Shown: positions 520-7,491 of the stretch, piece after piece
How the letters are laid out: every line of letters starts with the position of its first letter
Numbering within the stretch: position 1 is the stretch's first letter
Virus record (IMG/VR): IMGVR_UViG_2740892230_000015
Length of the DNA: 35,688 nucleotides
Origin: a virus
Lineage: Duplodnaviria > Heunggongvirae > Uroviricota > Caudoviricetes
Strand: one strand, 5' to 3'
The notes under the pieces: generated by a model
What the model saw: only the letters and a program-made list of their open reading frames with translations
Told to the model about the DNA's origin: nothing
Database searches by the model: none
Position numbers and translations under genes: made by a program

Positions 520-806
520 GATTTACTCTCCACGAACTGGTCAATAGCCATGCTAAGTGACACACCTAAAGTCTCGATATGCTGCTGAATATCCTGTAGC
601 GTCTGCGCCTGAGATAACAGGATTTCACGGTTGCATAACTCTTTAACCAGATGCTCAAACTTGCTGTAATAACCGATACGACTTAGTGTTTCTTTCCCTG
701 CATTCTCGTCTTCTTTGATAATTCCTCTTTCGCTAAGAATCAGATCGTGTTTTGTTCCGGTAATAACGTATTTTCCGAGGTCGATGTTTAGCTTCATTGT
801 TTTCAT
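516..806 (-). CDS. hypothetical protein
   Basis: ORF 516..959; preferred start is ATG at 806, preceded by GAGGAA. An alternative ATG at 824 overlaps the upstream stop. Confidence 0.45.
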
Positions 807-3625: not shown

Positions 3626-3878
3626 TGGTTGCCTCCGCTTCCCACGTTTTCAGACTTTCACCACAGAACGGGCAAAATGAAACTCGAATAGGCGATTTAG
3701 AAAATTCACCAGACCGCAGCATGATCAGGTCTTGTGAATGAATTAATTCATGGTTATAGATTTTGTATTTCAGCAGACCTTTTCGCGTCGTGTATTCAGC
3801 GTCATGCTCCAGGGATTGTGCCAACGCCGCGCACGGTTCTATCTTGTTGCCATTAATTTGGCATTTTGACTCACTCAC
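3618..3878 (-). CDS. putative zinc-ribbon protein (about 86 aa)
   Basis: ORF 3618..3902; preferred start GTG at 3878 in the repeated context GGGGGCAACCAGTGA, overlapping the upstream stop. Contains C-x8-C ... CPFC. Confidence 0.4.
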   Translation of the reverse strand: MSESKCQINGNKIEPCAALAQSLEHDAEYTTRKGLLKYKIYNHELIHSQDLIMLRSGEFSKSPIRVSFCPFCGESLKTWEAEATSE

Positions 3879-4452
3879 TGGTTGCCCCCTGAATACGCTC
3901 AAACTCTATTACCCACACCCAAGGATTAGCGTTCCAACTATCTTCGCCATAAATTGATTTCCATAGGCTACGGAAACCTGGGTAATGCTTATCGCCAATG
4001 AGGGTCGATTCTGTTGGTGCGCCCTCAGCCCTTGCATCGCATTCGCTGATATCGTTCAACCGCTCAACGCGCACGTTGGTAATTTCCAGAAGAATGCGCG
4101 ATGCCCAGCGCGGCATGTGAATTGATGGCGTCCACTTTTCTGATACTGGTTTATTACAAACCTCGACCGGAACCCGGTGCGTTTGTTCTGTCCAGGAGTT
4201 ACGCACGCTTGCGCGATAAACCAGCGTTGCGACGTCCGTCGCTTTGCCATGTACCCGGTAGGTTTCGCGAACCCAAATACGATCGCCCGGTTGACCATAT
4301 GGACAATGCTTGGCAAGCAACTCTGCGGCCACTGCCCGTCCATAGAATTTTTCTTCAACAATCCTGCGAGTCTGTGTTTTATTCCCGCCAAGAATTGCCC
4401 GGACCATCTCATCGTTAAAAATCATGCCGCGCTCTTTCACTTCGCCTTTCAT
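3871..4452 (-). CDS. ASCH/PUA-like domain protein
   Basis: ATG at 4452 with GGGGGA RBS. Motifs FNDEMVRAILGGNKTQTRR and SIHMPRWASRI resemble the ASCH fold; a call from memory of the motif. Confidence 0.45.
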   Translation of the reverse strand: MKGEVKERGMIFNDEMVRAILGGNKTQTRRIVEEKFYGRAVAAELLAKHCPYGQPGDRIWVRETYRVHGKATDVATLVYRASVRNSWTEQTHRVPVEVCNKPVSEKWTPSIHMPRWASRILLEITNVRVERLNDISECDARAEGAPTESTLIGDKHYPGFRSLWKSIYGEDSWNANPWVWVIEFERIQGATSE

Positions 4453-4548: not shown

Positions 4549-4616
4549 ATTTTCAGCTCCTGTGATTGATTGGATACATGCCGCGCCTTGCGGCATGTTT
4601 TTATTTTCACTTTCTC

Positions 4617-4647
4617 TGTTTTAAAAATCAATATTTATTAGAGCAAT
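4617..4647 (-). promoter_or_regulatory. C1-operator-like site overlapping a sigma70-like promoter
   Basis: Minus strand reads ATTGCTCTAATAAATAT (16/17 to the P1 C1 operator). TTGCTC as -35, 17-nt spacer, TAAAAC as -10. Confidence 0.55.
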
Positions 4648-5172: not shown

Positions 5173-5204
5173 AAAAAAATGCTGGTGGGCGCACTCCACC
5201 AGCA
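5173..5204 (-). terminator. rho-independent terminator (minus strand)
   Basis: Minus strand hairpin TGCTGGTGG-AGTGCGC-CCACCAGCA followed by T7. Confidence 0.5.
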
Positions 5205-5225
5205 TTAAAAGTGACACTGTAACTG

Positions 5226-6488
5226 TCAGCGAACGTAAATAGTGCCGCCGTTCTCTTTTTCCCATGCATCGCTACGTGCATAGCAAACATCGAGAAGTCT
5301 TCTTGCCGCTGTTTCCTCTAAACCCAATTCGACAACCAACTGCTCATGACGGCGGGTAACCACATCAAACAGGGTATGCAGCCCTTTAGTTGCCAGATCA
5401 TCAATAAATTCCGGTTCGAACGGCAGCTCTGCATCTGCCAACATAACCTCTTGCGCCCACTCGACACGGCGGACCAGTTCCGGGCGGCGGCTTTCCATCT
5501 CTTTACAGATCAATTCATGGAAGAACTCTACCCAACCTTCCGGCTGGAACTCGCGGAAAATGGCCAGCGGCTGGAAGTTTGGCATCAACCATTCGTTGAT
5601 TCGGATATCAATGGCATAGCCCATGTCGCAGCAGAACTGATAAGCAAAGTCCAGCTTAGAAACGATATAAGGACGCTCGTTATTGAACTCTTTAGGCGAT
5701 GAGATCCCATAAGCCAGGAGGCGCGGGAAGAAGGAGATTTGCCCTAACGTCGGATGAAGTTTGCTTGCAGGGAAACGGCGCTCAGTAATGCCATACATTT
5801 CCTTCTTGAGCGTCGCAAATTTGGCATTCTCATTAACCAGCGCGGTAACCTCTGCTTTTTTATTAGCAAATGCCACGCGCGCTTCGCTTGCATCTTTAAT
5901 AGTTTTTTTGAGCTGTTGGTTAAGGTCGGCGACCTGCTTACGCAGTTCCTGTCGCTCGCTTTTAGCTTTGTTATAGCGTTTCTCAAGGTTAAAAGGATCA
6001 AGTTTCATGATCTCTTTATATTGAGATTTTAGCGTTGAAATCTGTGAGTTCCGCAGTTCAACCATCGCGGTCATTTCATTGAGTTTTGTTTCCAGCTCAA
6101 TGCTTATACGTTCGGCATTATCAGCACGCTGGTTGGCGTCATGCGTCGCATCGTCGATCGCGTCCTGTTGCTGGCGTTTCAAATGTTCAATTTGCAGCTG
6201 AAGCTCTTCAATTTCTTTACCCTTCAGACCGAGATCCAACTGCATATTTTCAGCTGCATCTACCAGGGAGTTATGGCTATCAGCTTCTGCGTTATAAACA
6301 TCAATAAGCTGTGCGTGAAGCATCTCCGCTGACTGAACCGCATTATCAAAAAAACGTGCTGTGAGGTCATCACAACTAACGCGGCGTTGCGCGGCCCGGA
6401 TGTTCTGGATAATGGCCGGGATACCGGCATTCAGGACATCAGGGATAGATACATTTTCGATTGATTGGTTTTGTGCTGAAGTGCTCAT
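5226..6488 (-). CDS. coiled-coil protein of unknown function (420 aa)
   Basis: Long ATG-initiated ORF; the central about 200 aa is heptad-rich and charged (EIEELQLQIEHLKRQQQ...). No enzymatic motif recognised. Confidence 0.6.
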   Translation of the reverse strand: MSTSAQNQSIENVSIPDVLNAGIPAIIQNIRAAQRRVSCDDLTARFFDNAVQSAEMLHAQLIDVYNAEADSHNSLVDAAENMQLDLGLKGKEIEELQLQIEHLKRQQQDAIDDATHDANQRADNAERISIELETKLNEMTAMVELRNSQISTLKSQYKEIMKLDPFNLEKRYNKAKSERQELRKQVADLNQQLKKTIKDASEARVAFANKKAEVTALVNENAKFATLKKEMYGITERRFPASKLHPTLGQISFFPRLLAYGISSPKEFNNERPYIVSKLDFAYQFCCDMGYAIDIRINEWLMPNFQPLAIFREFQPEGWVEFFHELICKEMESRRPELVRRVEWAQEVMLADAELPFEPEFIDDLATKGLHTLFDVVTRRHEQLVVELGLEETAARRLLDVCYARSDAWEKENGGTIYVR

Positions 6489-6489
6489 T

Positions 6490-6708
6490 TCAAAGTTCCG
6501 TATTAGCTTGTGCTTCGGTCATTTTTCCTAAGTATGAAGGAGGAAGGACTACGCAATTTGTATCCAGTCCCTCACCTATGGCAGCCTGTAAAATTCTGGC
6601 TAAGGTGAGTCTCTTGTTGCGATACCTGGTGATGACATGCCTGATACCGCCGGTCGGCGTAACAAAGGCGATCAGCCAGTAGTGATATTTCCGTCGGAAT
6701 GGCCACAT
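6490..6708 (-). CDS. hypothetical protein (72 aa)
   Basis: ATG at 6708 with AAGGTG upstream; first gene after the operator-promoter at 6723-6788. Confidence 0.45.
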   Translation of the reverse strand: MWPFRRKYHYWLIAFVTPTGGIRHVITRYRNKRLTLARILQAAIGEGLDTNCVVLPPSYLGKMTEAQANTEL

Positions 6709-6722
6709 AGTGCACCTTGTAG

Positions 6723-6788
6723 ATTGCTCTAATAAAAAACGTGATGAGTGTACATCACGTTTTAAAAATATGGAATTATTAGAGCAAT
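6723..6788 (-). promoter_or_regulatory. paired inverted C1-operator-like sites flanking a hairpin; promoter for the 6708 operon
   Basis: ATTGCTCTAATAAAAAA at 6723-6739 (plus) and ATTGCTCTAATAATTCC at 6772-6788 (minus). On the minus strand TTGCTC-N17-TAAAAC. A 9-bp-stem hairpin at 6738-6761 with flanking A/T runs sits between them. Confidence 0.5.
6733..6761 (-). terminator. hairpin terminator ending the upstream operon
   Basis: Stem AACGTGATG/CATCACGTT with a 6-nt loop; T-run follows on the minus strand. Confidence 0.4.
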
Positions 6789-6789
6789 A

Positions 6790-7491
6790 TTATTCTGATT
6801 CTCGCTCAAAAAATGAGCTGATAAGGGGAAGCCAATCCTCTGACACTTCGCGAGGTCGCGGTTTGCCGTGGAAAAAGATTATTCGGCAGTCTTTTGGTAA
6901 TGCCCCATTCCCCCTGGAGTAACGCGCGCTCGCATATTTTGAACCAGGTTCCACAACATCGGCCTTGTAACTTACAAACCATCCTGGATACAGATCCTGA
7001 AATGCTGGTGTATCATCGCCCATAACCTTTCGTAAGAACCCCTGGTCACCCCAGCACTCAGTAGTGACACAACGAGAAATCCAACCTTCCGGATCTTGCC
7101 AGAATGAACTCCAGATATGCGCTTTAACACTATTTGGTATCCACAGGGCACCGCTGCCACGATATTGTGGATGGTAAAAATCCCTAAGCATGGTGAAGCT
7201 GGTTGGTGGATGCTCTAGGATTGGGCGTATATCACCGGCAATAACCGTGTCCAAATCCAGATAGAACAGATCATCGGTTATATCCGGTCGGAACAACTCG
7301 ATTTTCGCCCACCAGCCACGGCACTTTTGCCACTGGTTGATCAATGGGACAACTTTGACGCCAGGTACATGTAAACGCTTCAGGTCTGTCAGGCAAATAA
7401 TTTCATAGCCTTTTGGCAGTTGATTAACCAGCCACTGCACATCGGAAGCGTTATAGTCACCACCAGAGCGAAAAACTAAAGCAATCTTCAT
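6790..7491 (-). CDS. putative nucleotide-sugar glycosyltransferase-like protein (DxD motif)
   Basis: 233 aa; Rossmann-like N-terminus [13 protein letters not shown] and a candidate DxD motif YLDLDTV. Stop overlaps the phosphatase gene by 4 nt. Function is weakly supported. Confidence 0.35.

Follow-up and report, generated by a model that had tools for sequence, protein, structure and literature searches.

A probable intrinsic terminator nested between the paired C1 operators upstream of pmgR-pmgS in a P1/P7-type phage-plasmid

The interval between pmgQ and pmgR in P1/P7-type phage-plasmids is, as we propose with fairly good confidence, a C1-controlled promoter-operator region that precedes pmgR-pmgS and has a transcription terminator nested within it. 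The operator-promoter architecture as such is already known: both operators are annotated in the P1 and P7 records and the promoter, PpmgR, is predicted in the P1 record, all of which has been public since 2004, and the significance of the present analysis is small for that reason. Our additions are likewise small, namely a terminator-like hairpin between the two operator sites and the retention of the paired-site layout in distant relatives. The locus had been picked out in an earlier note, whose author recognised real regulatory sites from the raw sequence, and which we correct with respect to one of the three promoters that it proposed (Op68/Pdmt). For P1 biology and for the engineering of P1-based vectors, what matters is a probable, unannotated terminator that would insulate the essential pmgR-pmgS unit from a non-essential upstream operon, together with a paired-operator layout that distantly related P1-like plasmids of different immunity specificity also conserve.

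Results

The operators lie between pmgQ and pmgR in P1/P7-type DNA

The stretch of DNA that was analysed, hereafter the window, is 35,688 nucleotides long (IMG/VR record IMGVR_UViG_2740892230_000015). Its positions 6450-7050 (601 bases) are 100% identical to P7 (AF503408) and 99.8% identical to P1 (AF234172), and a 3-kb stretch around Op86a/b shares 99-99.9% identity with the P1-type phages P7, P1, SJ46, RCS47 and others. The same stretch is carried by 687 plasmid records, among which Escherichia and Salmonella predominate. Judged by these matches, the window is P1/P7-type phage-plasmid DNA. It is oriented as the reverse complement of P1 and spans approximately P1 53.2-88.9 kb; the repressor gene c1, at 93231-94082 in P1, lies beyond this span. 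At 3871-4452 (minus strand), downstream of Op88, the window encodes the P7-type upf86.8 (193 aa) and not the P1 gene pmgT (309 aa), so that here the element resembles P7, while elsewhere it matches P1 or SJ46 slightly better. Three tRNA genes that are also annotated in P1 are found on the minus strand (17932-18007, 19439-19514 and 19517-19592; anticodons CAT, TGT and GTT), the one with the CAT anticodon being tRNA-Met according to ARAGORN and tRNA-Ile2 according to the P1 annotation.

Following transcription along the minus strand, the genes near Op86a/b are pmgN, pmgO, pmgP, ppp and pmgQ, and then pmgR and pmgS. In the P1 and P7 records pmgQ (hdmD in P7; 6790..7491, minus strand) is the final gene of the pmgN-pmgO-pmgP-ppp-pmgQ unit. 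The first gene behind the predicted promoter PpmgR is pmgR (shtA in P7; 6490..6708, minus strand), which is preceded by the Shine-Dalgarno sequence AAGGTG at 6713-6718 on the same strand. The second gene of the pmgR-pmgS unit in these records is pmgS (shtB in P7; 5226..6488, minus strand), and our terminator scans place a terminator-like hairpin with a T-run, closing the unit, directly 3' of it (5178..5206, minus strand). The upstream unit had been labelled a glycosyltransferase operon in the earlier note. The label is borne out in so far as PmgQ matches PHROG 1962, 'glycosyltransferase', with E = 2.5e-128, but a Pfam search with PmgQ and PmgR returned zero matches, and the designation of pmgQ/hdmD thus comes solely from the name of PHROG 1962.

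It has been reported that pmgR is essential for the formation of infectious particles (PMC9024508). CRISPRi targeting of pmgQ left plating unaffected (PMC10695390), an outcome that is compatible with an independent pmgR promoter, although the point is a weak one, since the same screen also missed pmgR.

Op86a and Op86b are inverted C1 operators with perfect cores

Both reference records (P1, AF234172; P7, AF503408) annotate two protein_bind sites for 'phage repressor C1' at this locus: OpmgRa (former Op86a; ATTGCTCTAATAATTCC, 6772..6788, minus strand) and OpmgRb (former Op86b; ATTGCTCTAATAAAAAA, 6723..6739, plus strand), which in P7 are named Op(sht[a]) and Op(sht[b]). Op86a starts 2 nt past the pmgQ stop codon and is described in the P1 record as 'monovalent C1-controlled operator OpmgRa; former Op86a; controls expression of pmgR and pmgS'. 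The two sites are inverted and each has a perfect 13-nt core; each also has three mismatches to the 17-bp consensus ATTGCTCTAATAAATTT, all of them in the A/T-rich tail, which places both sites inside the range of 0-7 mismatches covered by the 13 annotated P1 operators. Op86 reportedly goes back to surveys of C1 binding sites made in the late 1980s. In Op86b the mismatches at positions 15-17, where AAA replaces the TTT of the consensus, coincide exactly with the T-run that is described below, and the last six bases of the operator are the template for the minus-strand U-run.

Sites of this kind are dispersed over the window. There are five exact copies of the core TTGCTCTAATAA, and seven if one mismatch is tolerated, compared with a mean of 0.22 in shuffled sequences, where 0 of 100 shuffles reached seven. 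The 17-mer consensus ATTGCTCTAATAAATTT has seven sites with at most three mismatches, where 0.14 are expected. In all, nine annotated operator sites fall within the window. Besides Op86a and Op86b, the annotation includes OpmgT (former Op88; 4631..4647, minus strand; P1 and P7 records), which goes with the predicted promoter P2pmgT; Odmt (former Op68; 23783..23799, minus strand; P1 record), which goes with the annotated promoter Pdmt; the divalent Obanab (former Op72ab; 20250..20277; P1 record), made up of two overlapping inverted 17-mers; O26 (former Op82; 10396..10412, plus strand), listed in the P1 record and recovered by our consensus search; and Oppp (former Op83; CATGCACTAATTAATTT, 9489..9505, plus strand; P1 record). 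Op83 is absent from the three-mismatch search because it has four mismatches; it lies downstream of the predicted promoter PpmgN and is reversed with respect to transcription, the same geometry as that of Op86b. PMC8546580 restates the operator consensus and gives approximately 22 as the number of dispersed operators in P1.

Consensus match, dispersed copies and reference annotation together identify Op86a and Op86b as P1-type C1 operators. What had been described from the letters alone as operator-like sites in opposite orientation bracketing a hairpin is, accordingly, a curated pair of inverted operators with perfect cores and with the hairpin between them. Note that one further copy of the core, TTGCTGTAATAA at 661-672 (plus strand), has a single mismatch and is not annotated as an operator; by its P1 offset it falls in the doc gene region and may be a chance match.

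The predicted promoter PpmgR has its -35 hexamer inside Op86a

The P1 record lists a 'predicted sigma 70 promoter PpmgR', the -35 hexamer of which, TTGCTC (6782..6787, minus strand), lies inside Op86a; the -10 hexamer TAAAAC (6759..6764, minus strand) follows 17 nt past the -35 and overlaps the 5' arm of the hairpin. The earlier note had gone further and proposed three promoters of one design, with TTGCTC inside the operator as the -35 and a 17-nt spacer beginning TAATAA. The pattern itself can be read directly on the minus strand at all three sites: TTGCTC, 17 nt starting with TAATAA, and then TAAAAC (4618-4623), TAAAAC (6759-6764) or TATGTC (23770-23775). As promoters, two of the three agree with predictions of the P1 record that use TTGCTC as the -35, namely PpmgR and P2pmgT (-35 TTGCTC at 4641-4646, -10 TAAAAC at 4618-4623, minus strand). 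The third, at 23769-23799, differs from the promoter annotated at Op68, the 'sigma 70 promoter Pdmt' of the P1 record (-35 TTGTTT at 23783-23778, -10 TACCAT at 23759-23754, minus strand), the -35 of which begins on the last base of Op68. Op68 and Op88 have 24 nt in common (ATTGCTCTAATAAATATTG.TTTT), so that operator plus spacer resembles a repeated cassette; despite this, the dmt promoter is placed in the P1 record 3' of the operator and not on TTGCTC.

The three sites are weak matches to the consensus, and PpmgR looks weak on paper, with hexamers that are poor and incompletely conserved: the -35 matches the sigma-70 consensus at 3 of 6 positions and the -10 at 4 of 6, with the final T missing. 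A generic promoter scan called neither PpmgR nor the other two sites. TTGCTC is also the -35 of P1ban at Op72a, a promoter that the P1 record lists without the word 'predicted', and at Op86a, as at Op88, TAAAAC stands at the identical 17-nt offset after the same T-run. A literature search for mapped P1 transcription starts found none. An antisense promoter reading out from Op86b was considered and rejected, as the hexamer 17 nt past the plus-strand TTGCTC is AGTGTA, no -10 element, and there is no plus-strand gene.

A terminator-like hairpin and U-run separate the two operators

Between the operators, the minus strand folds into a hairpin at 6736..6763 (5' arm 6763-6753, loop 6752-6747, 3' arm 6746-6736) that reads AAAACGTGATG-TACACT-CATCACGTTTT and then TTATTAGAG. 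Its core stem consists of 7 bp (CGTGATG/CATCACG, with four G-C pairs) around a 6-nt loop and folds at -8.5 kcal/mol, or at -13.4 kcal/mol with the A.U extension. Directly after the core stem comes the T-run TTTTTTATT (6731..6739, minus strand), evident in the sequence and in our custom terminator scan, which would constitute the U-tract of an intrinsic terminator. The stem starts 27 nt past the pmgQ stop codon on the transcribed strand. When an 81-nt region is folded, the energy reaches -26.9 kcal/mol (z = -8.1), a value that includes the automatic pairing of the inverted operators with each other.

The built-in terminator scan missed this hairpin, apparently because that scan prolongs the stem into the T-run. 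A custom scan, in which the T-run was permitted to begin within the closing A.U pairs, yielded 11 terminator-like sites in the window, the Op86a/b hairpin among them, versus 0.9 in shuffled sequences. The P1 record annotates no terminator at this hairpin, nor elsewhere in the 36.5 kb that we fetched, but this is uninformative, because the record omits even textbook hairpins such as the one at 5206-5178. An Rfam search of 6600-6900 with E values up to 1 returned no family, and a search of the whole window returned only the three tRNAs. Searching the literature for mentions of Op86, or of a terminator close to pmgR, gave nothing relevant (Lobocka 2004 and Velleman 1987 were outside its reach), and a search for P1 Term-seq or Northern data found none. 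The possibility that the stem represents an Lpa (-22) box of a P1 late promoter was rejected, since the annotated boxes AAGTGACTT, AAATGACTA and AAGTTACTT are unlike CGTGATG/CATCACG.

By its form, its position and the covariation of its stem, the hairpin with its U-run is a probable intrinsic terminator. This is in good agreement with the earlier proposal of a terminating hairpin 3' of the upstream gene: it has the form of a terminator, it lies just past the stop codon on the transcribed strand, and its stem carries compensatory changes. Termination may be partial, since the core measures only 7 bp (-8.5 kcal/mol).

The stem and the T-run are maintained while the surrounding spacer diverges

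The 13-nt core of Op86a is unchanged in all of approximately 79 IMG/VR copies, and that of Op86b is changed in one. The gap between the 12-nt cores (TTGCTCTAATAA) measures 40 nt in 167 of the 171 environmental copies and 41 nt in the remaining 4. Compared with P1, the gap of Salmonella plasmid pCFSAN058588 and of three IMG/VR contigs is different at 12 of its 40 positions; four of the differences fall in the stem, where they make up two compensatory pairs (G-C to A-U, A-U to G-C), an outcome that we estimate to arise by chance approximately once in 189 cases. Compensatory pair changes occur in the Salmonella, L097 and JK004 loci. Both TAAAAC and the T-run are identical in the P1 and Salmonella lineages, and the 11-nt spacer before TAAAAC differs at 5 positions in the Salmonella-type locus. 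In Cronobacter phage JK004 the stem persists with a single U.G wobble, and the -10 is TGAAGC; among the 171 environmental copies, the -10 reads TGAAAC in 5 and TAAAGC in 10.

When 17 distinct variants are compared, both partners change in two stem pairs and only one partner in five others, which mostly remain paired; 97.3% of the stem cells are paired, and the T-run is invariant in 17/17. The outer helix that the operators would form (helix 1) has zero covariation among the same variants. The hairpin loop and the spacer next to it diverge by 45-50%, with the stem kept through compensation, and several single copies have stem-breaking changes. The stem covariation derives from essentially one divergent lineage, or from few lineages. 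A strand-specific preference for G.U wobbles in the stem was looked for and set aside, as wobble-compatible transitions outnumber incompatible ones by approximately 10 to 4, which is not significant (p ~0.09). Among copies that are otherwise nearly identical, a small hot spot of variation is found at 6719-6722 (CTAC on the minus strand), between Op86b and the pmgR ribosome-binding site and beside the invariant operator core, where the 4 nt vary freely and the variants are CTAC, CTAT, TTAC, ATAC, CCAT, CAAA and CCAA.

Distant relatives keep the operator pair, with other motifs and without the hairpin

P1-like plasmids of Citrobacter freundii and Pantoea encode PmgR homologues with 34-45% identity; a PmgR scan of the genome contigs returned only two identical loci. 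Directly upstream of the pmgR homologue, both kinds of plasmid carry one tight pair of inverted arms, ACCATACTAATT-N20-AATTAGTATGGT in Citrobacter and AGATACTAAAATAT-N18-ATATTTTAGTATCT in Pantoea, and in three Citrobacter-type loci, two of which are further IMG/VR relatives, the arms are conserved and the spacer is divergent. The motifs are also dispersed: ATACTAATT is found 12 times on the Citrobacter plasmid NZ_CP056338, compared with approximately 0.5 expected, and all 12 copies are intergenic, while ATACTAAAA is found 13 times on the Pantoea plasmid NZ_CP034366, compared with 0.8 expected. Both plasmids encode a C1 homologue (27-28% identity) that adjoins the terminase genes, as in P1. We regard the dispersed motifs as candidate operators, given that they behave like operators in these respects, and the two plasmids as probably representing new P1-type immunity specificities.

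Both a G/C hairpin and a T-run are absent between the arms of the Citrobacter and Pantoea loci. Since these relatives keep the pair without the hairpin, the paired layout would be older than the hairpin, and the terminator would be dispensable for the module. On our reading, a plausible -35/-10 pair straddles the first operator in the loci of both kinds. A comparison of helical phasing across the lineages (31, 35 and 53 bp on the CTAA core) was abandoned, as its result hinges on how the centre of a site is defined.

Discussion

The mechanism that we propose for the Op86a/b region combines repression of initiation with termination of upstream transcripts. The immunity repressor C1 would recognise the inverted perfect cores of Op86a and Op86b, as annotation and sequence both indicate, and in the lysogen C1 on Op86a would shut off initiation at the predicted PpmgR, because the -35 TTGCTC lies inside this operator. 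Transcripts coming from the pmgN-ppp-pmgQ unit would be stopped by the hairpin and U-run, as suggested by form, position and covariation. Transcripts from PpmgR, for their part, would start in the hairpin loop, at approximately 6753-6751, because the -10 (6764-6759) overlaps the 5' arm (6763-6753); lacking that arm, they would pass the U-run unterminated, and their predicted leader folds with little structure around the Shine-Dalgarno sequence. At Op86b, which would occupy approximately +14 to +30 and also encodes the U-run, bound C1 would add a second lock, by standing in the path of RNA polymerase as a roadblock or by holding C1 more firmly on Op86a. In the prophage the essential head-completion gene pmgR would be silenced tightly, and after inactivation of C1 its expression would not depend on the upstream operon.

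A broader reading, to which we give somewhat less than even credence, joins these elements into a history: an old, conserved paired module that later acquired a hairpin, and a dual-coded Op86b at which C1 acts as an elongation roadblock. Both arms would have co-evolved with at least three repressor specificities, whose motifs are ATTGCTCTAATAA (P1), ACCATACTAATT (Citrobacter type) and AGATACTAAAATAT (Pantoea type), and a hairpin of approximately 20 nt would have been inserted between them in the P1/P7/Salmonella/Cronobacter branch. The terminator would be 'self-immune', in that upstream transcripts are stopped and the local promoter starts inside the loop, and Op86b would be at once repressor site and U-tract.

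The most serious rival, which we consider unlikely, is that the hairpin is no working terminator but spacer DNA, an incidental palindrome or the leftover of an insertion, that C1 acting on the DNA accounts for all regulation here, and that upstream transcription reads through into pmgR. The core stem is indeed short (7 bp, -8.5 kcal/mol), the built-in scan made no call, distant relatives have the pair without the hairpin, and several single copies have stem-breaking changes. The P1 record likewise has no terminator here, but it annotates none in the whole 36 kb, even where they are obvious. Against idle spacer DNA stand the two compensatory changes, which hold the stem while the loop and adjoining spacer diverge by 45-50%, and the T-run, which is invariant and is created by a departure from the operator consensus.

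Much less probable is a second rival, according to which PpmgR is not real, pmgR-pmgS are expressed by read-through from upstream, and the whole block is a repressor-dependent stop combined with a leaky attenuator, similar to the 'stoperators' of phage L5. In L5 and other cluster A mycobacteriophages, the repressor gp71 binds as a monomer to asymmetric sites of 13-17 bp throughout the genome, some of which lie within transcription units, where the bound repressor blocks elongation (PMC6550527). Op86b and Op83 resemble these sites in lying downstream of predicted start sites, and Op83 provides a precedent within P1 for a reversed operator downstream of a promoter. PpmgR has poor hexamers, and JK004 and 5 of the 171 copies carry G at the key second position of its -10. 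The repressor protein and the host are unrelated to those of L5, however, and most L5 sites point along the direction of transcription, while Op86b and Op83 face the other way from the sites that overlap promoters. The L5 definition of a stoperator calls for a site remote from promoters and in line with transcription; being at approximately +14 to +30 of a predicted promoter and reversed relative to Op86a, Op86b falls outside it, although it may still act as a C1 roadblock. As to the promoter, a terminator directly upstream of the essential pmgR would be costly if no promoter followed it, TAAAAC recurs at the same offset after the same T-run at Op86a and Op88 and is conserved in the Salmonella lineage, and a plausible -35/-10 pair straddles the first operator in the Citrobacter and Pantoea loci. 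Plating was undiminished under CRISPRi roadblocks in pmgQ (PMC10695390), which points the same way, if weakly, pmgR having been missed as well.

Finally, the operator arms and the inner hairpin could form, in read-through RNA, one long interrupted stem (-27 kcal/mol) that serves processing or stability, for example as an RNase III site separating the pmgQ and pmgR mRNAs, but for all the strength of the 81-nt fold (z = -8.1; 13 + 11 base pairs) this is highly improbable: the outer helix follows automatically from two invariant inverted operators, shows no covariation and hence gives no independent support, a one-sided bulge of 12 nt lies between the two helices, Rfam has no matching family, and the outer 3' arm would rarely be transcribed if termination occurs at the inner hairpin.

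The P1 and P7 records (AF234172 and AF503408; Lobocka et al. 2004, J Bacteriol 186:7032) describe the same locus as ours, with identical operators, orientation, promoter hexamers and flanking genes, and only the marking of the hairpin as a terminator is missing from them. Within P1, the closest parallels to the C1-controlled region before pmgR-pmgS are the divalent operators Obanab (Op72ab) and Oc1ab (Op99ab), which likewise consist of inverted asymmetric 17-bp C1 sites with their A/T-rich ends facing each other, and in which the TTGCTC of one site is the -35. They differ in spacing: the sites of the divalent operators overlap by 6 bp, whereas the 17-mers of Op86a and Op86b are 32 bp apart, and this interval holds the -10, the predicted start and the terminator-like hairpin.

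The hairpin shares with enterobacterial intrinsic terminators a G/C-containing stem-loop, a U-run directly after it and a position just past a stop codon, and its upstream A-tract gives it the two-way look that such terminators have. It differs from them in that its core stem is short and embedded in a promoter, the transcripts of the downstream promoter would begin in its loop, and its U-run doubles as part of a repressor site.

Two other hairpins were noted in the window. A two-way terminator-like hairpin, AAAAGCCCGG...CCGGGCTTTT, lies at 15238-15260 (both strands) between the convergent dbn and gene 5. At 4576-4598, on the plus strand and thus opposite to the phage genes, a strong hairpin of 10 bp with six G-C pairs is followed by a T-run and sits within the leader downstream of the Op88 promoters; it is possibly the terminator of an acquired fragment, as the P1 record notes 96-98% identity to DNA downstream of hsd restriction loci (EcoDXXI, R124/3).
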